From positions 96,001 to 160,000 of the forward strand of contig CAVWCX010000036.1 in the NCBI GenBank assembly GCA_963753595.1: a stretch of 64,000 bases of DNA, in the 5' to 3' direction. The translations under genes were made by a program, and so were the position numbers. This DNA is from Candidatus Methanoperedenaceae archaeon (GTDB lineage: Archaea; Halobacteriota; Methanosarcinia; Methanosarcinales; Methanoperedenaceae). Under the pieces are notes generated by a model. It made no database searches. It worked only from the letters and a program-made list of their open reading frames with translations, and was not told where the DNA came from. Position 1 is the first letter of the stretch, and the number at the start of each line of letters is the position of its first letter. Below are positions 9,463 to 64,000 of the stretch, piece after piece.

Positions 9463-9499
9463 CTGTGTTTTTTTTTTGTTGGCATAATTTTACATTCCA

Positions 9500-9841: not shown

Positions 9842-10224
9842 GTATTTTTTGCAGCTTGTATCGCTCGATACATCTCTAAAATATCAGACCTTTCTCCATT
9901 GATTTTGAACTGATTTAGCTTAAGATGCATTTTCTTGAAAACAATTCCTTCTTCAACCATATTGTAAGATGTTATTTGATTAAGTGGTATTTCATTAATT
10001 ATATCGGATTTGAATATTAATCCCGCTCTTTTATAAAAGATAATTCGATTTTTTGTTACATAGCCCTTAAAACCCGCTGCTATATCGTTATTATTTGTCC
10101 CTACATACAAATTACCTATTGTTGCATAAATAAGCATTTCATTCGGCATTAGGAATTTTTCTATTCCAAGACCAGACAATCTTGAAGTTTCGCTTACAGT
10201 TTTTTTTAAAATTTCTTGAACCAT
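9838..10224 (-). CDS. Bacterial PH-domain-like protein
   Basis: FLMPNEM...YVTKNRIIFYK...EIPLNQITS pattern. Confidence 0.6.
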   Translation of the reverse strand: MVQEILKKTVSETSRLSGLGIEKFLMPNEMLIYATIGNLYVGTNNNDIAAGFKGYVTKNRIIFYKRAGLIFKSDIINEIPLNQITSYNMVEEGIVFKKMHLKLNQFKINGERSDILEMYRAIQAAKNT

Positions 10225-20127: not shown

Positions 20128-20129
20128 TA

Positions 20130-21869: not shown

Positions 21870-21873
21870 TTTA

Positions 21874-22968
21874 TCACAATTTTTTATCTAAATATCCTAT
21901 GCCTATTCTCAAAGCATTTTCCAATCTTTTTTTCTTTTCAGAATCTTTCTCCTTTTCGATTTCGGCTTTGATTAATCTTATGAGATTGCCTCGTATAGTT
22001 TCATCTTCGGTGAGATTCTCTGGTAAATGAATGTTATCCACAATTTTGAGGAAGAAATATTTTTCATCAAATTCCTTTAATAAGAGTTCAATATCGAGAT
22101 TAAGATCTAATGAAGGGAGCCCTTTAAGAACCAATCTTAAAACCTTTCTTTCGCCCTTATTTTTTTCAAGAATTTTTCTCATCTCGGAATCTGATTCAAA
22201 ATTTGTACAATCAATCTCCAGCGTTTCAAATTCTCGTATGTTAGTTTTTATTGGTTTAACAGTAACATTACCTTCGTTATATGAAGCTAATATAACTGAA
22301 CAATCTTTTTTATTCTTAAATGTCAGTGGTTCGGGAGTTCCTGAATAGAAACATTTGGTCTTACTTTTGATCTCTAAAATATCATGAAAATGCCCCAATG
22401 CAACGTAATCCAATTTGCAATTATCCAAATCAGTTGTTGTTATTCTCCTATAGCCTGCTTCTGGCTGTTCATCCCAATTAATATCAGTTATAGAACCATG
22501 AATTAATCCAACCTTGAAATTATCGGAGTCTTTTGCTTTAAATCCTTTGAGAGGTTCTTTTGTATCATCCATGTATGCCAAGCCATAAACAGTCAGCCCA
22601 TCTATTTCTTTAGCTTCTAAATCGGGCGAATCAAAAATAAGAATATTTGAAGGGAACTTATGTTCCAACCAGGGGCTTCCTTTTTTGTAAGGATCATGAT
22701 TTCCAGAAGAAATAAAAACAGTAATTTTTTCTTTGTTTAATCTTTCAAATTCGCTAATTACAAATTTTACTAATGATTTCTGTGGCTCAGCCGTATCAAA
22801 TAAATCTCCTCCAATCAGCAAAGCTTTTACCCTTTCTTTTATACATAAATTAATAATATTCGAGAATACGTCTTGGCAGTCATTTCTGTGAAGTTTAGAT
22901 TTGTCTCCAAGAACTTTAAATGTGGCTCCTAAATGAAAATCAGAGGTATGAACAAGTTTTATATCCAT
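21874..22968 (-). CDS. Mre11/SbcD-like (YhaO type) metallophosphoesterase nuclease
   Basis: HTSDFHLG, GGDLFD, GNHD, HG and ALGHFH motifs. Confidence 0.92.
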   Translation of the reverse strand: MDIKLVHTSDFHLGATFKVLGDKSKLHRNDCQDVFSNIINLCIKERVKALLIGGDLFDTAEPQKSLVKFVISEFERLNKEKITVFISSGNHDPYKKGSPWLEHKFPSNILIFDSPDLEAKEIDGLTVYGLAYMDDTKEPLKGFKAKDSDNFKVGLIHGSITDINWDEQPEAGYRRITTTDLDNCKLDYVALGHFHDILEIKSKTKCFYSGTPEPLTFKNKKDCSVILASYNEGNVTVKPIKTNIREFETLEIDCTNFESDSEMRKILEKNKGERKVLRLVLKGLPSLDLNLDIELLLKEFDEKYFFLKIVDNIHLPENLTEDETIRGNLIRLIKAEIEKEKDSEKKKRLENALRIGIGYLDKKL

Positions 22969-23282
22969 AATCCTACAGTTTAAATATATACGGTTGTATA
23001 TATAGACTTGCCTTTAAGTTTTCATTGGGTCTTGCAAAGCAGGCGAACCTACTCTTCAAAAATTTTGGAGTCTTTTATCTCAAAAAAATAATTCAGGAGA
23101 GTGCTTATTGATTTTGAATCTCTTTATAGTTGTATTCGTGCCCATTTTTGCACCACTAATTGTTCCTCTGATTAAGACATTCCAACGGAATCACGAGAAC
23201 GAACATATGTTGCAATCACTAAACTCCGTATGATGTATGAGGCCTATTTATAGCGTTTTTTACAAGCGAAGCAATAATAACC

Positions 23283-26314: not shown

Positions 26315-27148
26315 TTACACCATCCTTGCCGGAACTGTGCCGTTTTCAGTGACCTGGTCTTCGACAGCCATCATCCTGCTATCTAAGGTCTTCATCCCGT
26401 CCTCTCCCAGAACGCCGTTTGTGCTTACGGCTAACTTGCCGTTGCCCACCGGTTCGAGGTACTGGCCGGAAAGTGCTGTTCCTGCAAGACCGACTTCGGC
26501 TTTGCCCTGGTCAATAATATGCACGGGGTCAAACTGCGCGTAAGCTTCCTTGTCCTGCATTTCGTCTGCTACACCCAGGTATTCGTTACCCGCCCTGATG
26601 TCATCGATGAACAGGGTCGCTGCGCCCGGGTCGCTTGCTGCATTTATGCCAACGGAAATTGTGGCATCCCTGACTGCACCCGCTCCGGTCACTGCAACTT
26701 TGATATATCTCCATAAACCTGCAGCAAGTGCAGGGATATTCAATGTTTCATCCGGGGTTGCACATGCAGCGGTCTCGTCCAATACGAGCTGAAAAACATT
26801 TGCTGCCACCGGAATATCAGACTTAATCCATAAACCGATATACTTGTATCCTGAGAGATCCGCTGCCACGAAGTCGCGTGTGGCGACAAGGCCGGTTGTG
26901 AAACCTGCGGCGATTACCAGCTTTGCGCCCTTGGCATTTACTTTTTTTGCTTCTGTCTCGGCTGTTGCTGTTACGTTTGCCGCTGCTGCCCATGCGACCT
27001 GGCAATCGTCGATTATTTTCTCCATGTGCTTTCCGATGGTGAGTGCGCCCCTGCGCTCAACTGCATCGCGAAATGCAATTGCAGCGGCTGCTCTCTTTGT
27101 GCCTATACCGCTTCCCAGTTCCTCAACATTCACTGGATTGTTTACCAT
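26315..27148 (-). CDS. Capsid decoration/cement protein with inserted carbohydrate-binding-like domain
   Basis: Cement-like termini (AAAIAFRDAV; YLGVA...QGKAEV...GNGKL) around DLSGYKYIGLWIKSD...LFIDDIRA. Confidence 0.6.
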   Translation of the reverse strand: MVNNPVNVEELGSGIGTKRAAAAIAFRDAVERRGALTIGKHMEKIIDDCQVAWAAAANVTATAETEAKKVNAKGAKLVIAAGFTTGLVATRDFVAADLSGYKYIGLWIKSDIPVAANVFQLVLDETAACATPDETLNIPALAAGLWRYIKVAVTGAGAVRDATISVGINAASDPGAATLFIDDIRAGNEYLGVADEMQDKEAYAQFDPVHIIDQGKAEVGLAGTALSGQYLEPVGNGKLAVSTNGVLGEDGMKTLDSRMMAVEDQVTENGTVPARMV

Positions 27149-28491
27149 TATTTCTCACCCACTTTTGCATAAGCATCGTCTATGATGCTCTTTACTGGCT
27201 TCCCGTCGGTCCTGGCTTTCAACCTTGCAGCCTCAAGGGTGCTTGCGGCTGTATCTGTGAGACGTTTAAAGTCCCACTCCTTGAAATCCTCAGTCTTGAG
27301 GGTCGGCGTTGCGTCCATTATCTGTTTTATCAGTGGTGCACGCTTCTCCTGTTCTGCTGTGTCTATTGTTGCCTGTAATGTTGCGATCCTGGCTTCACTC
27401 GCTGCAAGGGCTTTGCCCTGATCAACGAATGCAACCTCTTTCGCATCAAGCAGTTTCTTTGTCTCGTTAGCCACCTTCTGCGCTTCTGTGAGAGCTGCAG
27501 AATCGGCTACAAGTTTCTTTACCATCTCAGGCGTGTACCCCACACCATCGACTACTATGCTCTCTGCCATTGTTTCCTTTGTCTCCTTTGCCTTTATTTC
27601 ATCAGTAATTGATGAGTTTGAATCTGTGGGTGCGGCTGAGTTGTTCGCAGGCGGCTGCTGTTCTTCCTCTCTCCCCTGTGCCGTCACCATGGATTTTGTT
27701 ATGCTCCTGATGATCTTCGCCATGCCAGCATGCTTCTCTTTCGGCATCTCCTGCATCAGCGAGTTCATCCTGTGTATCATAAGAAGCAGACCGTTTATCC
27801 CTTCGACAAACCGTCCTACAAGTTCCCTGTCTTTTGTCTGCAGACCTGCTGCTGCTTCGTGCAGTTTTCCCAGGTCTTTTTCGATCCCGTCAGCAATCTC
27901 TTTTGGAATAGTTACAGGTTCTTTCGGGTTTGTCTCAGGATCATCCGGAACAGCAGAATCCAGGATGCCGCACTTCGGTCTTGAACATCTACCAGCTTTC
28001 ACAACCGCTAGATGATCGTACAGGACTTTCTTCTGCACCGCTTGATACGGCTCATCTTTGAATGTCCCCGGCTCTTCAATAATATCAGCGTAATAGCCTG
28101 GACTGAGATCCCGCTTCCCTTTCCTGATTTCATCTGCAAGGACTTTGTCTGTAATGAGAAGATCGCCTGTGGCGACATTATTATTGAGTGTGACAGTTTC
28201 CGGAAGAACCCTGCCTTTTATCTCAGATACATCAATTATCACTCTGGATCGCGGATGCTCATCCGTTATCATCATCCGCTGCATTGTTGGCATTGAATCT
28301 GCAAGCGCTTCCGGGGATTTCAGGATCTTCTTTCCGTTGTAATCCAGCACCATTGCCCTGCATATTATGGCGTCTTTTACCAGCAGGCCGTCCTTTGTAT
28401 CAACTATTTTGGAACTGTCTATCTGGATGTCCATTGAATCGGAGAACATTATCCTGTCTGCTGCATCGCTAAGTGCAATCATGTGTACCAC
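27148..28491 (-). CDS. DUF2213-family head maturation protease/scaffold
   Basis: ITDEHP, GKRDLSPGY and YDHLAVVKAGRC motifs; coiled-coil C-terminus. Confidence 0.85.
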   Translation of the reverse strand: MVHMIALSDAADRIMFSDSMDIQIDSSKIVDTKDGLLVKDAIICRAMVLDYNGKKILKSPEALADSMPTMQRMMITDEHPRSRVIIDVSEIKGRVLPETVTLNNNVATGDLLITDKVLADEIRKGKRDLSPGYYADIIEEPGTFKDEPYQAVQKKVLYDHLAVVKAGRCSRPKCGILDSAVPDDPETNPKEPVTIPKEIADGIEKDLGKLHEAAAGLQTKDRELVGRFVEGINGLLLMIHRMNSLMQEMPKEKHAGMAKIIRSITKSMVTAQGREEEQQPPANNSAAPTDSNSSITDEIKAKETKETMAESIVVDGVGYTPEMVKKLVADSAALTEAQKVANETKKLLDAKEVAFVDQGKALAASEARIATLQATIDTAEQEKRAPLIKQIMDATPTLKTEDFKEWDFKRLTDTAASTLEAARLKARTDGKPVKSIIDDAYAKVGEK

Positions 28492-29965: not shown

Positions 29966-31360
29966 CTATGCAGTGAGTTTTGTCTGTGGGTCTGCCTCTG
30001 TTGGTCTCGATGATTTGGCTGTACCCATCGGCGCCGGTGTGCTGCTTGCCTTCTGAATTATCTGCAATAAAACTGTCTGCTCTGTGGTGAGCTTCGGCAG
30101 GCCATCCCTTTCCCTTATCTCATCCGGTGTTCTTGTAAACGACTTGACCTTCTCCGTATCTATCTGCGCCTGGAGTTTCAGTGCCCCAAGGCGTTCTGCT
30201 TCTGTCATCTCATACGGGCTATTCCATCGGATGCTCCACTCACCCGTATCCCCTGATAATCTCATAAGTACTGTTTTTAAGACACCTGATATCGCATTCT
30301 GTTTGGCTACTACTTTGCTATAGTAGGTGCTGCGATCCAACTGGCTGCCTGTTACTGCCCCCGTTGACAGGCCATACAATATTGTCTTGGGGTATTCTGT
30401 GACCCCAGCCAGTTGCTCCATCATCTTCTCGAAATATGGTGCAGGATTCAATACCGCGCCAGCCGTATTCAGGATGTTTGCTTTATAGCCGTCGGGAAAA
30501 GCAAGTACGGTTTTAGCGTTTATATCACCCAGCGAATCAAGAGCTGCCTCCCTGTCCTCTTCATTCGCATCTGGCGGCATATCTATCCCCAGTAATCCAC
30601 CGCCTACGCGCCACATGGTCTGGCCTGCACTCCACAGCATATTTTCAACTATCGTGATTATATTGTACGGTCGGTCTAATGCTGACACCCCAATACCCCA
30701 GCGGTTCTGCCTGTCACCCCAGTACTCCTGGAGTCCCGGATTCTCTATTATGATAACTCTTGACACATCAATAAGTGCACTTGTGCCAAACCTGTCTGTC
30801 AGGAGTCTGAATTGCTTTATCTTTAAAGGGAAGGTTACGAAACCATTCTTATCCGCCGTCTCATATACGACATCCTGTACCCATGTTTCGGGGATCGCCA
30901 TTATATATTCTACTTTACTTGTACTATCAGCGGGTTCGTTCAGTTCCTTATTATCCTTTATTCCCAGGAGCAGTACACTGAAGCCGTAAAGCCGTGACCA
31001 TTTCCATGCCTTGTCGAATTCTGCTCTTACCTTACTCTCATAAAGTTGTACCAGTTTCTCGGTCAGTTCCCTATCGGGATCCTCTTTTGTTAAGAACTTG
31101 TCTATGACAAACCCATTCTTCAATGCATCGTCAATGAGTTTGTCCACGATCGGACCGCCAATCCCCCGGTCATACATCTTCTTGCGGTTGGCATCTGTTA
31201 TAGTTTCGGTGAAAAGTGTATTTGTTGAAGACTTTCTCCTATTGGCGTTTGGTGTGCTATTTGGAAAGCCTGTTTTCTCTACGGTGCATACAGCGCTGTC
31301 GTTCCACAGTTTCTCCATTACATGCTTCTTTAACTCCTGCGCATCTTTGAAAACAGCCAT
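29966..31360 (-). CDS. Portal protein (DUF1073/HI1409-like)
   Basis: IVDKLIDDALKNG, WSRLYGFS, AGVTEYPKTILYG...G and TPDEIRE motifs. Confidence 0.85.
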   Translation of the reverse strand: MAVFKDAQELKKHVMEKLWNDSAVCTVEKTGFPNSTPNANRRKSSTNTLFTETITDANRKKMYDRGIGGPIVDKLIDDALKNGFVIDKFLTKEDPDRELTEKLVQLYESKVRAEFDKAWKWSRLYGFSVLLLGIKDNKELNEPADSTSKVEYIMAIPETWVQDVVYETADKNGFVTFPLKIKQFRLLTDRFGTSALIDVSRVIIIENPGLQEYWGDRQNRWGIGVSALDRPYNIITIVENMLWSAGQTMWRVGGGLLGIDMPPDANEEDREAALDSLGDINAKTVLAFPDGYKANILNTAGAVLNPAPYFEKMMEQLAGVTEYPKTILYGLSTGAVTGSQLDRSTYYSKVVAKQNAISGVLKTVLMRLSGDTGEWSIRWNSPYEMTEAERLGALKLQAQIDTEKVKSFTRTPDEIRERDGLPKLTTEQTVLLQIIQKASSTPAPMGTAKSSRPTEADPQTKLTA

Positions 31361-53232: not shown

Positions 53233-53620
53233 CTTCTACCCAGTTCCATATCACTGTTGTGATATTAAGTGGTATGCCTTTGATTTCAAGGACCTCACAT
53301 CTTCTTTTCAACTCGATGACACTCTCCTTTGCCTCTTTTGAATAAGCCCATGGCTGTTCATAGTGTTCTATTAAGGCACCTTTCCAGTAGACGTATCCCA
53401 CATGGTCTATGGTCATGTTCTCTATGCCGTGGAACCAGGGCTGCTTATATTCCCCGGCTGCAACTGTTTTATAAAGTTTGTTGAACGCCTCAATACCATT
53501 TGTTGTTAGAAAGCCATTGACGGCGCTCTCAACAAGACTCAGATCGACTGGTGCAAGCTTGTCCCCATCTGATGTAGCCTGCAGTATCGCTATTGCTTTA
53601 TCGCAATTATCCTCTTTCAT
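53225..53620 (-). CDS. Hypothetical protein
   Basis: Likely start MKEDN, overlapping the radC stop (ATGA). Confidence 0.6.
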   Translation of the reverse strand: MKEDNCDKAIAILQATSDGDKLAPVDLSLVESAVNGFLTTNGIEAFNKLYKTVAAGEYKQPWFHGIENMTIDHVGYVYWKGALIEHYEQPWAYSKEAKESVIELKRRCEVLEIKGIPLNITTVIWNWVEGE

Positions 53621-54300
53621 ATATGTCCAGCCTCCTTCATGCTGAAGTGTCTGCAATCGCCGATTATCACATGGTCGAGAACGTCTATATCCATTATCGT
53701 CCCCGTTTCCACCAGCTTCTTTGTGATCTCGATATCTTCCCTACTCGGTGTGGGATCGCCGGATGGATGATTGTGTGCAACAATAATGTGTGCTGCCGAC
53801 TCGATCAAGGCCGTGCGAAACACTTCTCTTGGATGAACAACGTTGGCGTTGAGCGAACCAATGGATATAGTGTCTTCTCTGATAATCTGGTTCTTGGTAT
53901 CCAGGCACAGCTCCACAAAATGTTCCTTCTTTGATTCCCTCATTGCCGGATAAAGTCGCCTGTAGACATCTTCGGGTGAGTTGATCTTGAACTTTGATGA
54001 ATTGTCAAAGGTTTCCAATCTTCTTGCCAGCTCAAAACAGGCTACGATCTGGACAGCTTTTCCTGATTTGATGCCGTGAATCTTCATGAGCTGGGATGCT
54101 CCTATTGCAGAGAGTTGTTTTAAGTCGAACTGCGACAGGACTCTTTGGGACAGGTTAATTGCATTCTCAGCAACGGAGCCTGATTTGAGAATTATCGACA
54201 GGAGTTCGGCATTGCTTAAGGACGTTGCGCCGTTTGTTATCAACCGACTGCTGGGTCTATCTTCTGCGGCCATATCTTCGATTCTTAGATTATATTGCAT
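53617..54300 (-). CDS. radC: RadC/JAB-domain protein
   Basis: LSNAELLSIIL, VHPREVF, AHNHPSGDPTPSREDI and LDHVIIG. Confidence 0.95.
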   Translation of the reverse strand: MQYNLRIEDMAAEDRPSSRLITNGATSLSNAELLSIILKSGSVAENAINLSQRVLSQFDLKQLSAIGASQLMKIHGIKSGKAVQIVACFELARRLETFDNSSKFKINSPEDVYRRLYPAMRESKKEHFVELCLDTKNQIIREDTISIGSLNANVVHPREVFRTALIESAAHIIVAHNHPSGDPTPSREDIEITKKLVETGTIMDIDVLDHVIIGDCRHFSMKEAGHI

Positions 54301-54338
54301 AATACCTCATAATATTCAAAAAGAGATCTTACCTGAGT

Positions 54339-54444
54339 CCGCCTGATTTCAGCTCCGCAGAGCGAAATCTGGCGCCAGCCTGATGCTCTCACCGAGGCAC
54401 TGCACGAAGAGTGTAGAGAAAATATTTGATAATGTTGAGAAGTG
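54339..54444 (+). pseudogene. Hairpin plus short tyrosine-integrase remnant, copy 1
   Basis: ~100-bp repeat of 56691..56791; encodes KSVEKIFDN. Confidence 0.55.
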
Positions 54445-54488
54445 CTACGATTTGTTTTAAATATGTTAAAATCCAATCGATAACGCAT

Positions 54489-54869
54489 ATGAAAAAAGTG
54501 GTAACAAAAGGTGAGACTATGGTTGGGGAAACGTTTGAAGGATCCTTGTGGTTCAATTCAAGCAAAGATACCATGAGACATAAGTTGGAAGAATCTGATC
54601 AGAACTCTGGGGTTGGAATAAGTTTTGGAAAAAATTTGCATTTATTTTCTTATAGCAAAGCGTATGTGGATTTGCTCTTTGACGATGATTCCAAAGGACA
54701 AGCCTTAGTGAAGAAAGATAGTTTGAAAAATTGTCCTCATTTAATTGAAGAATGCATTGGAAATTGGGCACGTAAGAATGGCCTCTGGATATTGAAATTA
54801 TCACAACGAAATGTACCTGTAAAATTAAAAGTAGTCCAAGACTATGAGATTTTTTATGTGTCAAAATAA
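54489..54869 (+). CDS. Hypothetical cassette protein
   Basis: ORF ends immediately before an attC-like site. Confidence 0.6.
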   Translation: MKKVVTKGETMVGETFEGSLWFNSSKDTMRHKLEESDQNSGVGISFGKNLHLFSYSKAYVDLLFDDDSKGQALVKKDSLKNCPHLIEECIGNWARKNGLWILKLSQRNVPVKLKVVQDYEIFYVSK

Positions 54870-54966
54870 GTCATATCGACCAGTGAGTAAAGAACTCTTC
54901 GCTTATTTCGTTCGCTCGCCTAACTGCCGAATATACGTTCGGGCTGATATTCAGCCGTTATATGAC
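54870..54966 (+). other. attC-like recombination site
   Basis: GTCATATCGAC ... GTTATATGAC imperfect inverted ends with an internal TTCGCT-rich imperfect palindrome. Confidence 0.55.
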
Positions 54967-54989
54967 ATATTGCTGGAAGAGTTGCCTCG

Positions 54990-55820
54990 ATGAGAGTGCT
55001 ATTTGTAACGGACTTGCATGGAAGCAAGTGGAAATATGAGCGGCTATTCAAAGTAGCAAAAGACTTTCGGGCAAATGTGGTCATCAATGGTGGTGACATG
55101 CTTCCCAAGGAATGTGAACCATTCAATCAGGGTGATTTCATTACGAACTACCTTGACGATTATTTTGCACGATTCAACTCTGCCGGAATTTATTATCTGT
55201 GTTATCCGGGAAATGATGATCTCAGGATTTTCGATGAACTGTTCGAGGAAATCTGCAATAAATATCCATTCATCGTCTACCTGGCACAACGTAAATTCGA
55301 AATAGAGGGTTACGATTTTGTAGGTATGAACTGGGTTGTTGATTATCCATTCAGGCTCAAGGACAGATGCAGGATGGACACAGAGGACTATATTTTCCAG
55401 GAGCAATTCGGAACAGGACTGTTATCCAAACCTGATGGATGGCAGGAAATTGATGACTGGTTTACCCATGCAAAAAAACTCCCAACGATAGAAGAGGAAC
55501 TGGATCGTTTGGTTCGTCCCAGGGATATGGAAAATAGTGTGTATGTAATACACATGCCTCCGTCCAGGCTGGGATTGGATAAATGTTATTACGGGGAAGA
55601 AGTAGGGTCAAAAGCGATTTACAACTTCTTGGAGAAATATCAGCCAAAGCTCTCTTTCCATGGTCATATACATGAATCTCCAGAAGTTACAGGAAAATGG
55701 AATGCAAAACTAGGCAGAACGATATGCATTCAACCCGGTCAACTTGATGAGTTCACTTATGTCACAATTGACATGTCAACGATGAAGTTTGACAGGATCA
55801 AGGAGCAATACGTCACATAA
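54990..55820 (+). CDS. Icc-like metallophosphoesterase
   Basis: TDLHG, GGDML, GNDD, HMPP and HGHIHES. Confidence 0.9.
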   Translation: MRVLFVTDLHGSKWKYERLFKVAKDFRANVVINGGDMLPKECEPFNQGDFITNYLDDYFARFNSAGIYYLCYPGNDDLRIFDELFEEICNKYPFIVYLAQRKFEIEGYDFVGMNWVVDYPFRLKDRCRMDTEDYIFQEQFGTGLLSKPDGWQEIDDWFTHAKKLPTIEEELDRLVRPRDMENSVYVIHMPPSRLGLDKCYYGEEVGSKAIYNFLEKYQPKLSFHGHIHESPEVTGKWNAKLGRTICIQPGQLDEFTYVTIDMSTMKFDRIKEQYVT

Positions 55821-55919
55821 CAGCATGTATGGAGTTTGCCTAGATCACCATAATGCTCGGCTTTGACTCTCACTTCGCCTAACCCTGATTCCGTCTTACA
55901 GTGGCAAAGCCTTATTAGG
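55812..55919 (+). other. Degenerate attC-like site
   Basis: GTCACATAAC overlaps the stop codon; contains CTTCGCCTAAC; decayed right end CTTATTAGG. Confidence 0.45.
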
Positions 55920-55942
55920 TAAGAAAGTAAGAAAGTAATACC

Positions 55943-56206
55943 ATGGCAACAGAAGTCGAGTTCACAAGAATGTCTACAAAAGGTCAAATAGTGATTCCTA
56001 AGAAACTCCGAGCAGGATTTGAAGACGGAACGCCATTTGCAGTAATCCGGGACAGAGATACGATTCTTCTCAAACAAATAAAACTTCCTGGTATTAAAGA
56101 ATTTGAATTTCTTGCAGATAAAGGAGAAACGATAGCAAGAGAACGGGGGATAAAAGAAACAGACATTGATGATATCGTCCATAAACACCGCAAAGTACAG
56201 GATTAA
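55943..56206 (+). CDS. AbrB/MazE-family antitoxin
   Basis: TRMSTKGQIVIPKKLR. Confidence 0.9.
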   Translation: MATEVEFTRMSTKGQIVIPKKLRAGFEDGTPFAVIRDRDTILLKQIKLPGIKEFEFLADKGETIARERGIKETDIDDIVHKHRKVQD

Positions 56207-56209
56207 AAT

Positions 56210-56620
56210 ATGGTAAAGGTAGTTGCTGATACCAATATTTACATTTCAGCTTTGTTCTGGCGCGGGAATCCATACAAGTTCATACATCTATGCTTTGAAG
56301 GAAAAGCCAAATTGGTTATCTCAAGGCAAATCATCGATGAACTCGAAAGGATACTTTTAACTGACGGGAAATTTGAAATGCCCCGAGAAGATGTGGCTTT
56401 ATATTCAGAAATAATCTTAAGCCATGCTGAATTTGTCTCTCCTGCCTTCACTTTGAATGTCATTGTTAAGGATCCTGCAGATGACAGGATATTGGAGTGC
56501 GCTGTTGAAGGTGAGGTGGATTATCTGGTTTCAGGCAACAAACATCTTCTTGATGTTAAGGAATTCCGGGGGATAAAAATCGTGACTGCAAAGCAGATAC
56601 TTGAAATCCTTGGAGTTTGA
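56210..56620 (+). CDS. PIN-domain (VapC-like) toxin
   Basis: VVADTNIYISA, DPADDRILECA and YLVSGNKHLL. Confidence 0.9.
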   Translation: MVKVVADTNIYISALFWRGNPYKFIHLCFEGKAKLVISRQIIDELERILLTDGKFEMPREDVALYSEIILSHAEFVSPAFTLNVIVKDPADDRILECAVEGEVDYLVSGNKHLLDVKEFRGIKIVTAKQILEILGV

Positions 56621-56690
56621 TATAATAACTTCAGCTATGCACTTCCTGACTCCGGAAAATCCAGCTTATATGGGATTCAATTGCACGAAC

Positions 56691-56970
56691 CCGCCTGATT
56701 TCAGCACCGCATTGCGAAATCTGGCACCTGATTATACCATTGGGGCACCATAGAAGTGTATAGAAAATATTTGATAATGCTGTGAGAAGTGATGGGGTAA
56801 CAACAGACGTTTACATTCACAGTCTCATACATGGTTTTGCCACACATCTGTTAGAAAGTGGGGTGGATTTAAGGTTATACAGGAGCTATTGGAACCGTCA
56901 ACAACAAAGATTTGAGTCGTATACAGACCACACTTGATCTAATCATGAAAAAGGAAGTAAGAAATGATTG
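56691..56970 (+). pseudogene. Tyrosine recombinase (integron-integrase/XerD-like) C-terminal remnant
   Basis: Across three frames: RSV*KIFDNAVRSDGVTTDVYIHSLIHGFATHLLESGVDLR / IQELL / VNNKDLSRIQTTLD, matching the HSLRHSFATHLLE-IQELLGH-SPLD pattern. Confidence 0.8.
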
Positions 56971-57180
56971 AGACTGTTCAGACAAATGATGTTATAGACG
57001 AACAAGAATTCGGATATTATGCTAGAATGGAAGGATATGCGAATTTGAGTTTGGATATGAAGAAGTTATGTGAAATTAAAAAATCTACCTCAAGAAAGCA
57101 GGTTGTAAATATATGAGGTTATATGCTATAGCTATGCACGCTAAGCACGGTATAATATATATTGGGGGTTTAGAGTAGTA

Positions 57181-58209
57181 ATGAAGAAAACGTCCACATT
57201 TGAAGAACGACTTTACGTCAAGTTGAGAGAGCAGATTAAAGGGAAAAAAGTTGGTTTCCTCCTTGGTGCAGGAGCCTCCTTTCTGAGCGGTAACGGGTAT
57301 CCGCTTGCGAATGGGCTTTGGGAAGCAATCAGAACCCATATGCCGGAAGAAGAACAACGTTTAATCGACAATGAAATTATGCGAGATTCCACCACATTGG
57401 AACAAGCACTGGATAGGTTAGACGGGGGAAGAAACGAATATTCGACCCTCCGTCACTACATCACGAATGCGGTAGCCGCTTCGTTCATTAATCATACACC
57501 TCCTCTCGATTACCACAGAGAATTTGTTATCCGTCTGGGAACGCGGTCTGAGAAACGAATTCCCGTGTTTACACTGAATTACGACTCGCTTATTGAAATT
57601 GCTACTGACATAGAGAAACGGCCTCTTATAGACGGTTTCTTAGGTACGGTGGAGTGCTACTTCCAACCGTCTTGTTTTACAGATTATCGAGGAATATTAG
57701 AGTCACGACGAGGGCGGTCTGTTCCTGTACACACGAGTGGAATAATCAACCTTTACAAGCTTCACGGATCTCTTGGCTGGTTTAAAGATACCGAATCCAG
57801 ACTGAAACGCATTCGACCAGACATGCCATGCCCTCCAGGCTGCATCCATCTTATGGTACCGCCTCAGAACCGCAAAGCTGCTGACACAGGAATAACACCC
57901 TACGCGACTATTTGGTCGGAGTTCCGTGCTCACCTCGCTAATGACTCCTCACGTCTGCTCAATAGGCTGGTATGCGTCGGTTATGGATTGGGTGATGGTC
58001 ACGTTAATGCAGTTATTGAGTCTGCCTTAGCCCGTAATCATTTTACACTTGTTGTTTTGGCGAAAGACCTTTGTGATGACACATTTAAACGTTGGCAGAA
58101 ATCCCCAAAAACTATCATTGTCACCGAAGAACGATCTTCTCTCTATGGAGAGGAGGGGCCAGGTATGCATGATGCGTGGGCATTTGAGTGGCTAGCAAAG
58201 GAGGTATAA
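57181..58209 (+). CDS. SIR2-like (SIR2_2) NADase of a SIR2-HerA defence system
   Basis: FLLGAGAS, FTLNYD, LYKLHGS and GYGLGDGHVN. Confidence 0.9.
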   Translation: MKKTSTFEERLYVKLREQIKGKKVGFLLGAGASFLSGNGYPLANGLWEAIRTHMPEEEQRLIDNEIMRDSTTLEQALDRLDGGRNEYSTLRHYITNAVAASFINHTPPLDYHREFVIRLGTRSEKRIPVFTLNYDSLIEIATDIEKRPLIDGFLGTVECYFQPSCFTDYRGILESRRGRSVPVHTSGIINLYKLHGSLGWFKDTESRLKRIRPDMPCPPGCIHLMVPPQNRKAADTGITPYATIWSEFRAHLANDSSRLLNRLVCVGYGLGDGHVNAVIESALARNHFTLVVLAKDLCDDTFKRWQKSPKTIIVTEERSSLYGEEGPGMHDAWAFEWLAKEV

Positions 58210-58211
58210 TT

Positions 58212-59876
58212 ATGTCGAATGGAAATTCGAGTTTGGTCGGTCATATACTGGATGTACAAAGTTCGATGTTCACAGCAGACCTAATCCAAAAGGAGGAAGG
58301 TGTTTCACCTACTATCACACTTGGAGACGAGGATATCTCTGTAGGGCGACTTGGGTCGTATATGAGAATCACACAAGGTGCTATCATCGTTATAGCGATG
58401 GTCAGCCGTATGACTGAGAAGGAAATTCTTTCTCCTTTCCCTTCCGATGGCACGGACGTAGCACCAACAGCGGAGGCATTTGCACAGCGAACCATTCAAT
58501 TGGTGCCAATTGGGTGCGTTGGCAGCGATGGTACTTTTGAACGGGGAATATCAGTTTATCCGACGACTGGCGCAGAGGTGCATGCGATTGCGAGTTCCGA
58601 ATTGGACAAGTTGTTCTTGAAGTTCCGGGACAAGCATTACGATGTGGGTGCCGTCTCATCTAATCCGACAACCCGAGTCTACCTTGACCCCTCGCCGCTG
58701 TTCGGGCGTCATTGCGCGATTCTGGGCCAGACTGGTTCAGGAAAGTCTTGGACGATAGCATCGCTCCTTCAGAAGGCAGTCTCACTAATGCCGCGAGCAC
58801 ATATTGTTCTTCTGGACTTACATGGGGAATATAAAAAAGCATTTGCCCCTGAGCACGCAAAGGTCATTGATGCAACGAAACTAGAGATGCCCTACTGGCT
58901 TATGACCTACTCAGAACTTACAGACCTACTCATCGACCGTACTGAACTGAGTGCACACAATCAAACGGCTTTTTTCCGCGATACCATCAACACATTAAAG
59001 CAAGAAGAAGGTGCCCGTCTTAAGTTGCCTCGAACAACAATTGATACACCGGTGTTCTTTTCATTGGAAACCCTAAAGGAAAGGATAAAGTCAAAGAACG
59101 AAGAAATGGTACAGGGCGCCACAAAGCTTATAAAAGGTCCGATGCACGGTGACTTTGACCGTTTCCTAATGCGATTGGATAGCCGTCTCAATGATGTACG
59201 CTATGACTTCCTCCTGAAACCAACGCTTCGGAACAACTCAAGCTCTCTTGAATCTCTATTGAGGGACTTCATTGGCCTAGGGTCATCTAAGGTACCAATA
59301 ACAATTATCGATCTTAGCCCAGTACCCTTCGATGTTCGTCCAACCATTACTGCACAAATTGGACGACTAACTTTCGAATTCAACTTCTGGAATCCGAAGT
59401 ACGAAGAGTTCCCGATACTACTCGTTTGTGAAGAGGCGCATGCATATGTCACGCGGGAGTCCAATTCCCAATTCGAAGGTGCACGGAAGTCGATGGAACG
59501 GATAGCCAAGGAAGGACGCAAATACGGCGTGGGCTTAGCAGTTGTCAGTCAGCGTCCACACGAAGTGTCAGAGACGGTTCTATCGCAATGCGGCACTTTT
59601 GTATGTTTAAGAATTACCAACCCGGATGACCAAGAATATATCCGGAAACTGGTTCCCGAAGCTGAACGCGATTTGGTGAACATCCTGGCAGGAATGCGAC
59701 GAGGGGAAGCGCTTGTCTTGGGAGAAGCTGTACCGATGCCTACACGCATACAGATGGACATGCCCAGCCCGACTCCTCGGAGCAATGACATCGACTTTTA
59801 TAAGTACTGGACCGAGGGACCGATAGATCTTGATGTTGCCACTATCGTTGACAGATGGAGGCGTCAAGCAAGGTAA
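58212..59876 (+). CDS. herA: HerA/DUF87 ATPase of a SIR2-HerA defence system
   Basis: RHCAILGQTGSGKS, DLHGEY, CEEAHAY, IAKEGRKYG and SQRP. Confidence 0.92.
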   Translation: MSNGNSSLVGHILDVQSSMFTADLIQKEEGVSPTITLGDEDISVGRLGSYMRITQGAIIVIAMVSRMTEKEILSPFPSDGTDVAPTAEAFAQRTIQLVPIGCVGSDGTFERGISVYPTTGAEVHAIASSELDKLFLKFRDKHYDVGAVSSNPTTRVYLDPSPLFGRHCAILGQTGSGKSWTIASLLQKAVSLMPRAHIVLLDLHGEYKKAFAPEHAKVIDATKLEMPYWLMTYSELTDLLIDRTELSAHNQTAFFRDTINTLKQEEGARLKLPRTTIDTPVFFSLETLKERIKSKNEEMVQGATKLIKGPMHGDFDRFLMRLDSRLNDVRYDFLLKPTLRNNSSSLESLLRDFIGLGSSKVPITIIDLSPVPFDVRPTITAQIGRLTFEFNFWNPKYEEFPILLVCEEAHAYVTRESNSQFEGARKSMERIAKEGRKYGVGLAVVSQRPHEVSETVLSQCGTFVCLRITNPDDQEYIRKLVPEAERDLVNILAGMRRGEALVLGEAVPMPTRIQMDMPSPTPRSNDIDFYKYWTEGPIDLDVATIVDRWRRQAR

Positions 59877-59911
59877 CCATTGATATATTTCAAGGCAATG
59901 AGGGGGGCTAT

Positions 59912-60095
59912 GGCAAATAACAACGGAATTTACGGCAGGTTTTCGAACTCTACGGAAGCCTTCAGCTTCCTTGTCCCGTTGCACTCTCACTCCGCTTTGC
60001 TTCGTTCGGGGCACATAACAGACGGTCATGCGCTTCCGGACCTTGCTGGTCCTTCGCCGAAATTGTTCGCTTCGCTCACAACTCCCATCAGCCGC
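59912..60095 (+). other. Tandem degenerate attC-like sites
   Basis: GGCAAATAAC (59912) and GCACATAAC (60011) left ends; TTCGCTTCGCTC-type internal motifs. Confidence 0.5.
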
Positions 60096-60251
60096 TTTGA
60101 ATGATTACATCTAATGGGAACAGATAGATTCGTCAACGTCTCAGCAATAGAATTGCGGAGCATGGAGGTTTTGTGTAAGAAGAAGAAAAAACTCCAGACT
60201 TTATACATAGACCTCCGACTTTATACACAGGAGGAACTATTTACACAAAGC

Positions 60252-60973
60252 CTATATGTCAGGAAAAATACGACTATAAGCAATCTCGATACTCGCTCTA
60301 ATTTTCATCAAGGAAGTTTCTGTTTTAAAAGGATTCTGCTGGTCTGCCAACAGACTCCAAAAAGAATTTTCATGATTCCAGCTGCTTTTTAGGTCTTTGT
60401 TTTCATCTACGATTAAAACAAATATATCCAAGTGGAAGATGACACGCATCTCGTAAAACTGAGATTAATCTAAAAGCCGGTTTTATGAATTCATTTATTT
60501 TTGTTTCACCAATGTCGCTGTCAAATATATGAACCAACGTAGCAATATCTAAACCCCACTTTAAATATTCAACTAATTGTCCGATCCACGTATGATATTT
60601 TGTATTATTTAAGTTCGAAGCATAAAAATATTTCGCTTCAACTCCCGCAAAGATTCTCGTGGGGGATTCTTCACAAAAAGGGGGGAGGCATGCCTGATTA
60701 AGATATCCCACGTAAGGAAATATAATCGACTTCAAAGGCTTTGACATAGTTCCTAATTTCAGTCTCATTCAACCCTATAGGGTCTAAGTAACTTTTACAA
60801 TATGGGATAATCTGTTTACATAGACCCACGTGTTTCAACCATTTGCCATTTAACGAGGGTTCCAATCCCACGTTTAAAAAACCCGATTTAGCTAACCACT
60901 CAACTGCCTCTAGCTCGCCATTTGGAAAAACTTTTTTCCCTTCAATATTATCTGATAGATTTTTCATAGACAT
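60252..60973 (-). pseudogene. Frameshifted gene, possibly a PD-(D/E)xK nuclease
   Basis: Three overlapping ORF pieces; EVDYI...GVEAKYF...IGQLVEY. Confidence 0.45.
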
Positions 60974-61631
60974 CGTATCTACTTTTTAGTAGCTAGCTTA
61001 TATAGTTTCTCCGCGCAGAAATGCCCCGATTTAGAAATTAGAGCATTTTAAGAGCTCCTATAAATTTCAGTATTAGCAGAAACAAGTACAATTTTATTAT
61101 ATTTTATATTTTTGTCATGATCGCATTTTCTGCACCTTCCATGTTCTTCATCCCATAGTGCCTTCTCATGTTGCCGCTCGTGCGCTATGCGAAGGTTCGC
61201 ACGGGTTGCCAGCAAGTGCAGGGAGCTAGGAGACGAAGGCGAGGTATTACAATAGGTGAGGTATGAGGAAGCCCAAGAATCTTTTGCAAAACATCATCCT
61301 GCCTTTTTAGAAATGTGGTAAAGGAGCATATTCATAGTTCCATGAACCTCCAATTTTAGAAGTCTTATTTGTACAAAAACTCAATGTGTTTCTTTTAAGA
61401 GTGCATACATCTGGCATACAAAATTGAATTCTATTATGGTCCAAAGTTTAAACATCGTGGGAGGATATCAAAATCATAAGTTTTTCATCTTTCTTGATAA
61501 CCCCAATATATCATTAATGATAAAAGATCGAAAAATTCTCCAATTTCATAAGATGCAGAACCTGTTTTATTGGATCATGAAAGCAGTTTACCCATTAAAA
61601 TATAATCAAATAATTGCAATTCTCACTTTTG

Positions 61632-62441
61632 TCACATGGGTTCAAGTTTTTCTTTTTTCAATTTTTCCCATAAACCTGCAAACCACGTCTGAAAATAGCT
61701 TATCAAAGCTGGATCATCGATATAAAAAGCTTTGTATGTTTCAAGAGAACCAGTTGGTAGAGAGGGGTGCAGCCATACTCTTAATGACTTCCCAGCTTTT
61801 GATATTACAACAGTAAATGGAATCAAAGATCTCTCACTACCGCCCCACGATGCTATCCTAAAAAGGTTTTCACAGTCAATATTTATTCCGTCCTCTTTTA
61901 ATTCATTCTCCTTCTTTTTTTTATACATCTCAAAGTGTCGTGCATCTACACCGCTAACGATAAAACGACGAGTACATCCTTTTTTAATTGACTCTTTTAT
62001 TGCTTCATCGAATGTTTCAATATCTCTCAAAGGATTAAAAGCGTGAATAACCTGACTCTCATTGATAAGTTTAGACACATCTTCAAAAGTAATAATTCCT
62101 TTATCGCGGTAAATATGGTTGTCGAGTTTACGTAATGAATCTTCAAATTTATTGTCGAGTTTATATAATGAATCTTCAAATTTATTAATTGATGTTTCAA
62201 ATCTATTCCCAGATGCGTCAAATCTATTAATTGATGTATCAATTTCTCGGACATTGTTTTTAAGTATATCGATATTCAAAAAATATGTAAATAAATGCGA
62301 AAATACAATAACCATTGTTAAAAAAATTAATACAACAATTGTTTGAAACCTTGTTAATTCAACAATATATGCTGCTGCAATTGCTCCTACAATTAGCAGA
62401 GCATTTGCAAGAATGTCTTTCACTATATTTATAATAACCAC
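61632..62441 (-). CDS. Two-TM coiled-coil membrane protein with globular C-terminal domain
   Basis: N-terminal TM helices and NKFEDSL repeats. Confidence 0.7.
   Translation of the reverse strand: MVIINIVKDILANALLIVGAIAAAYIVELTRFQTIVVLIFLTMVIVFSHLFTYFLNIDILKNNVREIDTSINRFDASGNRFETSINKFEDSLYKLDNKFEDSLRKLDNHIYRDKGIITFEDVSKLINESQVIHAFNPLRDIETFDEAIKESIKKGCTRRFIVSGVDARHFEMYKKKKENELKEDGINIDCENLFRIASWGGSERSLIPFTVVISKAGKSLRVWLHPSLPTGSLETYKAFYIDDPALISYFQTWFAGLWEKLKKEKLEPM
62119..62184. repeat. 33-bp tandem duplication within the CDS (11-aa coiled-coil unit)
   Basis: ttgtcgagttta(cg/ta)taatgaatcttcaaattta x2. Confidence 0.8.
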
Positions 62442-62626
62442 CTTTGATTAAATTAATATATGGAATATTCTCTATTGACTAAGACTAAATAAACATATCT
62501 CAAAATTGTTTTGAATAAAAATCGATATCTTATAAATTAAATTATTTCAAAATCTCCATAGCATCAAACTGGTGGTCTCAAATAATAAGATAAAGCTAAA
62601 TAATAAAAAGTGATTATCAAAATAAA

Positions 62627-63613
62627 ATGAAATCATTTTCGGAGTTAAAAGATTGTTCATTTGGTATTAAGCCAAAAGAAATTAAAGCTTTAGTGAAGAT
62701 AGAAGGGGCAATTTTAAATTCAGCTCGAAATTATCTCTTTGAAGATGGTTTTACTGAAGTAATTGTTCCACATATAACTAAAGCAACTGGAGCATGCGAA
62801 AATCCTAACACTTTATTTGAAGTGATTTATTTTAATGAGAAATTAAAACCATATCTTTCTCAAACTGGGCAATTATATTTAGAAATCGTTGTACCATTTT
62901 TGGAAAAAGTATGGTGTTATGGACCAAGTTTTCGGAAAGAAAATAAGGTTGATTATAGGCACTTAACTGAATTTACTTTATTGGAAATTGAGTTTTGTGG
63001 TAATTTTAACCAGTTGCTTTCTAAAATAGAGGGATTGATAAAAGCAATGATAGAAGGGGCAATTCTTCAAAGAGAATATCTTGAAATATTAGGAGTTGAT
63101 TATCAAAGGCTTAAGAATATTAAAACACCCTTTAGGAGAATAACGTATGATGAAGCCATTGGCATACTAAATCTAGATTGGGGAGAAGATTTAAATAGTA
63201 CAAATGAAAAATTTTTGATTGAAAAGTTCGGGAATAGCCCCCTTTTTATCACATATTTTCCAGAACATATAAAATTTTTTAATATGAAAAGAAACTCGGA
63301 TAATCCAAAAGTAGTTAATAGTGCTGATTTATTGCTTCCTTTTAGTGGAGAAGCCGTTGGGGCAGCTGAGAGAGAGATCCTATATGAAATAGTTGAAGAA
63401 AAACTCCAAAAATCATCAATGTTTAAACAATTGTTAGATGTGGGACGAAATATTAATGATTTTGATTGGTACTTAAATTCCATAAAAGAAAATAAGAACT
63501 GTCCTCATGCAGGTTGTGGAATTGGTGTGGAAAGAGTATTGCAGTTTATATTAGCAAGGAGTGACATAAGGCAATCAACACTTTTTCCTTTAAATAAGAT
63601 TAATCTATTTTAG
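62627..63613 (+). CDS. Class II aaRS catalytic-domain-only paralogue (AsnRS/AspRS-like; archaeal asparagine synthetase A type)
   Basis: YLSQTGQLYLE, GPSFRKE...RHLTEF, GAAERE and PHAGCGIGVER; no anticodon-binding domain. Confidence 0.85.
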   Translation: MKSFSELKDCSFGIKPKEIKALVKIEGAILNSARNYLFEDGFTEVIVPHITKATGACENPNTLFEVIYFNEKLKPYLSQTGQLYLEIVVPFLEKVWCYGPSFRKENKVDYRHLTEFTLLEIEFCGNFNQLLSKIEGLIKAMIEGAILQREYLEILGVDYQRLKNIKTPFRRITYDEAIGILNLDWGEDLNSTNEKFLIEKFGNSPLFITYFPEHIKFFNMKRNSDNPKVVNSADLLLPFSGEAVGAAEREILYEIVEEKLQKSSMFKQLLDVGRNINDFDWYLNSIKENKNCPHAGCGIGVERVLQFILARSDIRQSTLFPLNKINLF

Positions 63614-63672
63614 ATAAATATAGTGGAATGTTCTTATGAGTTTGAATTAAACCAATTTAATCAGCTATTTTT

Positions 63673-63999
63673 CTATTTTATTTTATAAATTTGTTGATCT
63701 TTTAATAGCTTCTCCATTTCTTCGATTAATTTTTCAACATATTTATTATTAGCAGTTATAATCGCTTTCATGGGCCCATGAGTAACATCATAGTTTTCAT
63801 ACATTTTCAATGTTTTTCCAATGTTATCAAGTTTTGGTGTATTAGTTCCCATAGCTTCCGGCGCTGGGATGGGTATTATTGCATATTTATGCTTTTTAGA
63901 AAGTGTAAATCCAAATATTAATTCAGACAATTTTTCATATTTAATTAAACTACTTGCCGGAATGCTAAAAAATGTATTTGATTTATGCAATTTCTTCAA
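63673..63999 (-). CDS. Hypothetical protein, 5' end outside the window
   Basis: Open frame runs to the window edge. Confidence 0.5.
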   Translation of the reverse strand: MKKLHKSNTFFSIPASSLIKYEKLSELIFGFTLSKKHKYAIIPIPAPEAMGTNTPKLDNIGKTLKMYENYDVTHGPMKAIITANNKYVEKLIEEMEKLLKDQQIYKIK

Positions 64000-64000
64000 A

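Follow-up and report, generated by a model that had tools for sequence, protein, structure and literature searches.

The stretch of DNA analysed here, hereafter the window, comprises 64,000 nucleotides (nt) of a genome of the Candidatus Methanoperedenaceae (G000:C36:96001-160000, where G-labels denote genomes of the family and G000 the genome of origin). The interval under study, 54339-60095, holds a small open reading frame (ORF) named o147, a phosphoesterase gene, a VapBC toxin-antitoxin pair and a two-gene SIR2-HerA defence system, all of them on the plus strand, together with the tail of a broken tyrosine recombinase gene. Region 54339-61108 is probably the variable slot of a provirus-like element, in which lies the wreck of an integron-like gene-capture platform. 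Support for this integron-like reading comes from other genomes and not from the sequence motifs on which the original prediction, that of a relict integron-like array, had relied. The features of the locus are as follows.

53617-54300, minus strand: radC, the last conserved gene at the left.
54339-54376 (core 54345-54369), plus strand: palindrome H1, 45 nt upstream of the start of radC; fold z -4.2, equalled by 0 of 200 shuffles.
54410-54446, plus strand: a second, shorter integrase fragment (KIFDNVEK...), the right part of a direct repeat of about 100 nt shared with 56755-56790.
54489-54869, plus strand: o147, 126 amino acids from its ATG, with no family match.
54916-54964, plus strand: E1, a short attC-like site made of TCGCCTAAC, a 9-bp stem with one mismatch and then CGTTATATG, with G|TT at 54957|54958.
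54990-55820, plus strand: calcineurin-like metallophosphoesterase (Pfam Metallophos).
55812-55918, plus strand: E2, the phosphoesterase 3′ element, which starts GTCACATAAC and forms an element of about 85 nt after the stop codon.
55943-56206, plus strand: AbrB/MazE-like antitoxin (profile match).
56210-56620, plus strand: PIN_3 toxin, VapC (profile match).
56621-56660, plus strand: conserved tail after VapC, beginning TATAATAAC.
56691-56728 (core 56697-56721), plus strand: palindrome H2; fold z -3.9.
56764-56962, plus strand: tyrosine-recombinase remnant (Box II region), with two frameshifts and its N-terminal part deleted.
56964-57116: a small, doubtful ORF that contains the attI-like junction.
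56996-57067, plus strand: attI-like site; its conserved block runs to ...GGATATGAAGAAG|TT, and 57065|57066 is the junction.
57181-59876, plus strand: SIR2-HerA, a predicted defence system of two genes and the cargo nearest to the attI-like junction on its right.
57181-58209, plus strand: its SIR2 gene (SIR2_2; PADLOC SIR2, E 6e-35).
58188-59876, plus strand: its HerA ATPase gene (PADLOC HerA, E 1.2e-153).
59913-59985, plus strand: E3a, first of two 3′ elements of HerA.
60010-60104, plus strand: E3b, the second.
61108-61228: resumption of backbone homology, the right limit of the variable region.

The frameshifted integrase C-terminus that the original prediction had noticed at about 56750-56970 is real and broken. 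Three-frame translation of 56691-56965 gives KIFDNAVRSDGVTTDVYIHSLIHGFATHLLESGVDLR, then VIQELLEPSTTKI* and DLSRIQTTLDLIMKK in shifted frames, and a piece of 39 residues (56764-56880) matches Pfam Phage_integrase (E 1.4e-4), the NCBIfam models for XerD (E 3e-7) and for integron integrases (E 1e-6), and NCBIfam NF040815 XerA_Arch (20.8 bits). What is left is a frameshifted tail of about 190 nt, from which the stretch with the catalytic tyrosine and the whole region of the IntI-specific domain are absent. The same remnant is found 3′ of palindrome H in G018, G027, G030, G037 and G050, and among 49 genomes of the genus its closest matches are, without exception, remnants themselves.

The integrase tail and the approximately 130 nt that follow it (56896-57065 in the window) form a unit that is dispersed through the genus. 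Ten copies of the junction, from eight genomes, are conserved up to ...GGATATGAAGGAG (majority identity of about 0.88 over the last 30 nt), continue with an invariant TT and then run into unrelated, co-oriented cargo; an eleventh regular-expression match (L037) is unrelated and was left out. All ten thus display an attI-like site next to an integrase gene, with the cassette junction at G|TT. In the window, this junction lies 115 nt upstream of SIR2-HerA, and the cargo after it begins TTATGTGAAATT, in agreement with the pattern TTRNNNRAAATT with which cassettes start after attI and attC sites elsewhere. Contigs assembled from metagenomes diverge from the window at 57069. The left boundary of SIR2-HerA, which had been predicted at 57118, must accordingly be moved 52 nt to the left. 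At the five junction loci that were fetched, the cargo is followed by high-scoring attC-like sites.

These sites form a family. G030 and G036 have one and the same attC 3′ half in front of different cassettes, with divergence setting in after GTTA, and starting from this half, common to two intergenic elements, a family of sites of about 85 nt was assembled, ten of which served to build a covariance model, R1. In our comparison set of 53 genomes of the family (52 besides that of the window), R1 finds 34 matches at E<=0.01, distributed over 15 genomes. When 23 sites are aligned to the model, 92.9% of the cells are paired and 12 of the 20 pairs show double changes; the double-change cells number 53, as against 10.5 in shuffles (0 of 500 reach 53) and 3-12 in slid controls, figures to be read with caution, as the model itself guided the alignment. 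Variation hardly touches the outer boxes, TAAC and GTTA; the inner stem varies by compensating changes, and there is a one-sided bulge of 5 nt. Part of the boxes are canonical (GTTAGGC, GCCTAAC), while most read GTTAYNN and TATAAC. The site of G030 folds at z -5.3 on the bottom strand.

The arrangement of these sites in relatives is that of a cassette platform. G038:C31 carries an integrase remnant followed by three ORF-attC units about 500 nt apart, with three sites within 1.1 kb, and by our own models relatives satisfy the spacing rule of at least two sites less than 4 kb apart. In G010:C126, G010:C218, G048:C24 and G048:C79 the junction is followed by cargo and attC-like sites, and in G048:C155 an intact integrase of 360 residues is followed by one ORF and one attC-like site. 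One ORF-less mini-cassette of 99 nt stands after attI in G048:C24 and after attC in G010:C218, its homology starting at G|TT in both; occurrence of the same unit after attI and after attC is the signature expected of integron cassettes.

The nearest intact relative of the remnant, that of G048:C155, is a protein of about 360 residues, 61% identical over the remnant piece, with Phage_int_SAM_4 and Phage_integrase domains and an N-terminal extension of about 85 residues. Integron integrases carry an extra domain that is thought to be necessary for the recombination of folded attC sites. This IntI-specific domain, situated around patch III, is treated as defining for integron integrases (PMC9668308). 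Three intact members of the present family all pass NF040815 XerA_Arch (244.9, 242.6 and 244.2 bits against a cut-off of 220), and all three fail the integron-integrase model TIGR02249, which they match in two stretches (234, 222 and 218 bits against a cut-off of 265). By E-value, the best Protein Data Bank match of the G048:C155 protein is the integron integrase IntI4 (2a3v). This alignment too falls into two stretches (residues 87-255 to 10-180 and 273-351 to 240-318), between which 59 residues of IntI4 face 17, so that about 42 IntI4 residues are skipped; to the XerA structures 4a8e and 5hxy the protein aligns in one stretch. Two bacterial members of the family behave in the same way. Because the IntI4 alignment skips these residues and TIGR02249 stays below its cut-off, the family is held to lack the IntI-specific domain.

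Homologues with 60-73% identity occur in metagenome-assembled genomes (MAGs) labelled Methanocellales, Methanosarcinales, Thermoplasmata, Caldisericum, Atribacteria and WOR-3, among others. Around 30 integrase loci, bacterial ones included, a broader attC-like model, R2, finds 22 sites in 11 loci, every one of them co-oriented with the integrase and most of them downstream of it. At six loci (L137, L138, L139, L142, L151 and L154; the MAG labels are Caldisericum, Atribacteria, WOR-3, Dehalococcoidia, Nitrospirae and Methanocellales), the integrase shares 45-72% identity with that of Methanoperedens and has behind it a co-oriented array of sites scoring 29-82 bits. That a model of archaeal attC-like sites matches arrays in bacterial MAGs points to spread between the domains. 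The family does not have the profile of a single-copy chromosome-dimer resolvase serving one dif site: it is multi-copy, patchy and often broken, and it lies beside cassette arrays. A separate Xer-like gene of about 280 residues is present in most genomes of the genus, that of the window included (C24). As to the type of integrase, then, the linkage to cassette arrays implied by the original prediction stands in relatives, whereas the nearest intact enzymes are of the XerA type. Our literature search brought up no report of non-IntI recombinases beside attC arrays among the matches listed, which is no proof of absence in print.

Within the window, the phosphoesterase and VapBC are modular. The phosphoesterase has its left boundary, CG|TTATATGAC (54957), in three contexts with unrelated upstream DNA, namely the window, G036:C25 and G006:C49 (in the latter two, homology starts at 54952/3); position 54957, proposed as a cassette boundary in the original prediction, is therefore a real junction. 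In G036 an attC-family site of 41.6 bits, which was outside the set used to build the model, lies directly upstream of the phosphoesterase. The motif at 55812, likewise proposed as a boundary, proved to be the start of the discrete element E2. In a five-context alignment, 55821-55901 behaves as an indel of 81 nt, retained in four contexts and cleanly missing from G027; all four metagenome runs searched (X1-X4, of which X1 and X2 are perhaps not independent of the assembly of the window) show the joint 55820->55902, in which the 81 nt are left out. E2 ends CCGTTATRC in G030 and G036, and the homology of G036 to the other phosphoesterase contexts stops just after CCGTTATGC. Comparison with other genomes places the end of the element at about 55889-55901, and not at 55911, where the next boundary had been expected.

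The toxin-antitoxin pair (55943-56620) is 93-96% identical to copies in G027, G030, G037 and G006. Its right boundary, placed by the original prediction at 56621, is in fact at 56660, the breakpoint in all five contexts, which does not fall at a GTT; in metagenome contigs, loose ends occur at 56660/56663 and run X4 has a joint 56660->61108. Segment 54447-54924, with o147, sits in a different context in metagenome contigs. Since the phosphoesterase-VapBC block is 93-96% identical to its counterparts in relatives and the backbone only about 80-86%, the cargo moved more recently than the backbone diverged.

The genes that follow the attI-like junction of the window, SIR2 and HerA, are adjacent and slightly overlapping, as the definition of a SIR2-HerA system demands. 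No DNA homologue of the pair exists in the 52 other genomes of the family, and it is absent from all six related contigs compared; among 392 genomes of the class, the best HerA protein match is 44% identical. Beside relatives of HerA, no attC-like site was found at E<=1 except for one match of 15.7 bits in G027:C52. In metagenome contigs SIR2-HerA always has these same surroundings; 56962-57236, for instance, is covered by X1 with no difference, and 56896-57581 by X3. In G010:C213 (L101, L191), a DUF4297 gene (PADLOC, E 3.3e-78) and a HerA gene stand directly after the attI-like junction. No second context of SIR2-HerA having been found, it is at most a reasonable inference that the pair was captured as one cassette, as the original prediction had proposed. 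Between the 3′ elements of HerA and the backbone lies an AT-rich stretch (60105-61107), contiguous with HerA in metagenome contigs, which contains two overlapping minus-strand ORFs (60403-60768 and 60698-60973) that match nothing in Pfam or PADLOC.

The window's own sites were sought with R2, run without filters over the whole window and, in a restricted search, over 54300-61200 (6.9 kb). E1 scores 11.7 bits on the plus strand (54916-54964) and 11.8 bits on the minus strand (54917-54965), with E about 3 over the window and 0.3 over 6.9 kb, and folds weakly (z -1.7 and -2.4). Its box TCGCCTAAC occurs only four times in the genome and also heads attC-like sites in G048:C79 and G010:C126. E2 (55813-55918, plus strand) scores 10.9 bits (E 4.7 over the window, 0.5 over 6.9 kb), and a match of 11.5 bits lies elsewhere in the window, at 20334-20407. 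E3a is seen only in the restricted search: the predicted site at 59913 coincides with the best match to the attC model after HerA, at the weak score of 7.9 bits (E 2.8 over 6.9 kb). E3b has a partial match (60052-60082). E3 shares motifs with the attC-family site of G036; 59877-60115 has no DNA homologues in the 52 other genomes. Each of the four best plus-strand matches in 54300-61200 comes no more than 50 nt after a stop codon, that of o147, of the phosphoesterase or of HerA, which agrees with the sites of the original prediction. As the window's sites score only 8-12 bits and are not significant, the array is to be considered a relic, and E1, E2 and E3 may be read as decayed sites.

The motifs quoted in the original prediction fare less well. 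All six, at 54957, 55812, 55911, 56621, 57118 and 59913, are present in the sequence; as paired evidence for cassettes, they do not rise above chance in tests of consensus, complementarity or folding. None of the six fits the consensus GTTRRRY, which is not enriched in the window as a whole (93 occurrences against 119 expected), and no RYYYAAC...GTTRRRY pair within 140 nt, that is, no pair of canonical core sites, occurs in 54339-60095. When complementary 10-mers were sought between the upstream 60 nt and the stop region of 433 ORFs sampled from the same genome, 60 ORFs (13.9%) reached at least 9/10 and 293 at least 8/10; the phosphoesterase scores 9, and o147, VapBC and SIR2-HerA score 8 each. 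DNA folding of both strands of the intervals proposed as attC hairpins yields z -0.3 to -1.9, with 9-161 of 200 shuffles folding equally well. A classical attC in the interval was likewise rejected, since there is no RYYYAAC/GTTRRRY pair, the folds equal those of shuffles, and an Rfam search of 53500-61500 gave no match apart from a sub-threshold one to a snoRNA. The motif CGGGGCASATAAC, searched with one mismatch in the 53 genomes, is no commoner than its reversed control, and of its exact matches outside the genome of origin there are only three, two of them in coding genes. What stands of the integron-like array is hence its descent from a platform, as indicated by the junction copies, the covarying attC-like family and the phosphoesterase breakpoints; the motif pairs and folds do not stand.

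The setting is a head-tail provirus-like element, because the backbone carries portal and head-maturation protease genes and an integrase gene adjoins a tRNA gene. The viral context proposed in the original prediction is supported by the protease (27148-28491) and portal protein (29966-31360; PHROGs matches), both inside the window. The integrase adjoins tRNA-Gln(ttg) further along the contig, at about 204.3 kb (G000:C36:203098-204387), and a 16-nt copy of the 3′ end of this tRNA is found at C36:95902 (E 0.09). Together, the tRNA-Gln integrase, the 16-nt repeat, the portal and the protease suggest a provirus or composite island of up to about 108 kb; as regards its left border, the DNA beside tRNA-Gln in ten relatives resembles neither the left flank nor the island. 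Backbone genes near H include radC, an RPA-like gene, primase subunits, an SNF2 helicase and MCM. Among the six related contigs compared, those of G027, G030, G037 and G018 share the gene order radC, H, the same integrase remnant, variable plus-strand cargo and the next backbone operon.

A defence island is found just past the window (locus L029, G000:C36:160001-177326) and encodes a UvrD-PD-(D/E)XK helicase-nuclease, DUF7226, a Dam-type methylase with an AlwI endonuclease, PRTase-CE with a ParB_N protein, and a ParA-like ATPase. Further on, a group II intron (RVT_1 and GIIM reverse transcriptase, 183610-184872) occupies a stretch of about 2 kb (G000:C36:182892-184909, L030) that is missing between the same two genes in G030, G027 and G016. 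Blocks of low G+C content (27-32% against a background of about 43-50%) at 8001-10000, 19001-23000 and 62001-64000 of the window are probably further foreign inserts; the last of them holds a class II aminoacyl-tRNA-synthetase-like gene of 328 codons (62627-63613).

Palindrome H, of which H1 and H2 are copies, is an imperfect palindrome of 45 nt with the form ...CCTGAAC..GATTTCAGCAC-NNNN-GTGCGAAATCTGGC. An origin of H as a tRNA-derived att site was dismissed, as the window has no tRNA and the repeat is not tRNA-like. Could the modules have moved by site-specific recombination at H, with its dif/lox-like 12-6-12 core, the adjacent recombinase having once acted on it? H has six co-oriented plus-strand copies in the genome, all on this contig (the other four at G000:C36:177385, 180545, 186262 and 194594), and is found in 11 of the 53 genomes of the family, where contigs carry several copies in one orientation. 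Its right edge is followed within a few nucleotides by variable DNA, and H1 and H2, which share about 100 nt at 77-90% identity, bracket the o147-phosphoesterase-VapBC block. The left flank of H2 (36 nt, 56661-56696) is hybrid, being similar to the flank that another H position has in relatives, G006 retains only the left half of H after VapBC, and runs X3 and X4 contain contigs in which a single H joins radC to the remnant. However, H always stands at a fixed place directly upstream of a backbone operon on the minus strand, accompanied by a conserved CCTGAAC box and a Shine-Dalgarno sequence downstream, as would befit a promoter or operator; the integrase remnants adjoin only one of the H positions, and chromosomal copies of the platform have no H. 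Moreover, the 6.3-kb insertion found beside H in G037 lacks another copy of H at the opposite end. On the whole H has the look of an operator linked to a promoter more than that of an att site, and movement of the modules by a recombinase acting on H strikes us as quite improbable. That the o147-phosphoesterase-VapBC block arrived by recombination at or near H, whether site-specific, homologous or provoked by the palindrome, is nevertheless probable.

A simpler account would be that of an ordinary, variable, defence-rich provirus slot, in which homologous or illegitimate exchanges between related viruses have swapped the cargo, the GTT/AAC motifs being coincidental and the integrase tail belonging to an unrelated integrative element. 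It would be in keeping with the chance level of the motif pairs and folds, with the conserved backbone on both sides of differing cargo and with the 24-kb defence island that follows. Two kinds of observation that favour it, on the scores of the window's sites and on three of the junctions, count at the same time against a gene-capture platform, as do several others. Neither model gives a significant match to the window's sites: R2 reaches 11.8, 11.7 and 10.9 bits at best (E 2.8-4.7 over the window) as compared with 34-107 in relatives, nothing at 56621, 57118 or E3 reaches E<=10 over the window, R1 finds no match in the entire genome of origin, and the folds of E2 and E3 do not surpass those of shuffles (z +0.9 to -0.7); the argument from the position of R2 matches past stop codons is post hoc. 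Junctions 54446, where homology to related elements ends, 56660 and 61108 are not at GTT, the o147 segment of the metagenome contigs ends at 54924 and not at G|TT, and phosphoesterase homology in G030 and G027 begins 20 nt inside the supposed cassette. SIR2-HerA turned up in no second context among family DNA, metagenome contigs or proteins of the class, and neither it nor the DUF4297-HerA pair of G010 is followed by an attC at E<=1. The circular cassette junctions proposed as a check in the original prediction were not seen in the assembled contigs of the four metagenome runs, nor was any excision joint at the proposed sites, parts without coverage being uninformative. On the other hand, mere exchange between viruses would leave unexplained why the integrase tail with a block ending in G|TT recurs in ten places, each time with different co-oriented cargo, which at the five loci fetched has high-scoring attC-like sites after it, why the phosphoesterase has its left boundary on the same dinucleotide in three contexts, and why this boundary abuts a 41.6-bit attC-family site in G036. 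We therefore judge the ordinary slot to be unlikely. The locus, which works or once worked in the manner of an integron, is best classed as the decayed representative of an integron-like platform with a recombinase family that is without the IntI hallmark.

In its working form, as seen in other Ca. Methanoperedens genomes and in several bacterial and archaeal MAGs, such a platform consists of a tyrosine recombinase gene for about 360 residues and, on the same strand some 130 nt downstream, the attI-like site. Incoming DNA is joined at the G|TT of this site, and the cassettes follow co-oriented, each ending in a site of about 85 nt with TAAC...GTTA outer boxes, a covarying inner stem and the one-sided 5-nt bulge. 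The recombinase of the family would catalyse these exchanges. In the window, the recombinase has decayed to its tail and the junction 57065|57066 is kept, with SIR2-HerA as the first cargo after it; this pair would have entered by recombination between attI and attC, and the array would now be frozen. A second, partial array (o147, phosphoesterase and VapBC) lies upstream between the two copies of H, where it probably arrived by a separate recombination at H.

It is tempting to go further and to suppose that a family of platforms extends across the domains (sampled so far in Ca. Methanoperedens, Methanocellales and Methanosarcinales and in MAGs of Caldisericum, Atribacteria, WOR-3, Dehalococcoidia and Nitrospirae), with a XerA-type recombinase that lacks the IntI-specific domain and has an additional N-terminal domain, an attI downstream of the recombinase gene and structured attC sites, and that copies of it ride an archaeal head-tail provirus and capture multi-gene defence systems (SIR2-HerA, DUF4297-HerA) at the first position. 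We hold this proposal tentatively, with rather more doubt than confidence. If true, it would mean that cassettes can be captured on folded attC sites with no need for the domain thought to define integron integrases. Should a XerA-type recombinase indeed do the job, the definition applied by integron-finding software would overlook an entire class of platforms, a descent of integrons from Xer-like enzymes could be tested directly, and archaeal viruses would join the carriers of cassette-borne defence systems. For the window alone the outcome is more modest: it accounts for the placement of SIR2-HerA, VapBC and the phosphoesterase and shows the platform there to be dead.

XerA and XerCD act on dif sites, which are duplexes of 11-6-11 organization, and dif-flanked modules exist on plasmids. 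The present family resembles them in scoring above the NF040815 cut-off (243-245 against 220 bits) and in aligning in a single stretch to XerA structures; unlike theirs, its sites are of about 85 nt with a covarying stem, and the junctions lie at one end of the site. Classical attC sites carry extrahelical bases, whereas the common type here has a one-sided 5-nt bulge; the outer boxes, too, differ from those of integrons in being more often TATAAC/GTTAYNN than RYYYAAC/GTTRRRY, and the window's copy is decayed. Archaeal integrons were first reported in 2022, with six IntI genes in all, attI immediately downstream of the integrase gene, and toxin-antitoxin and anti-phage functions among the cassettes (PMC9668308). 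In its main text that article has none of the terms Methanoperedens, Methanosarcin, Halobacterota and Halobacteriota, which may figure in its supplementary MAG list; a literature search combining Methanoperedens and integron returned only unrelated work, and a prior listing in supplementary material is possible. The platform shares with the integrons and the clusters of attC sites lacking integron integrases (CALINs) described there short genes in a common orientation, behind each of which stands a structured, imperfectly palindromic site with outer boxes of the AAC...GTT type, and with integrons the G|TT insertion point, the attI downstream of the integrase gene, and toxin-antitoxin and anti-phage cargo (PMC9668308). 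It differs from the integrons of that account in that the nearest intact integrases lack the IntI-specific domain and have an N-terminal extension of about 85 residues (PMC9668308). In being a cassette platform on a virus genome, it recalls the integrons and attC sites described from bacteriophage genomes (PMC9892861), from which it is set apart by its archaeal host, by an integrase that is a remnant and by a provirus whose borders are provisional. With respect to the SIR2-HerA systems defined in PADLOC, the proteins show nothing unusual; it is the setting that differs, immediately behind an attI-like junction and within an archaeal provirus.

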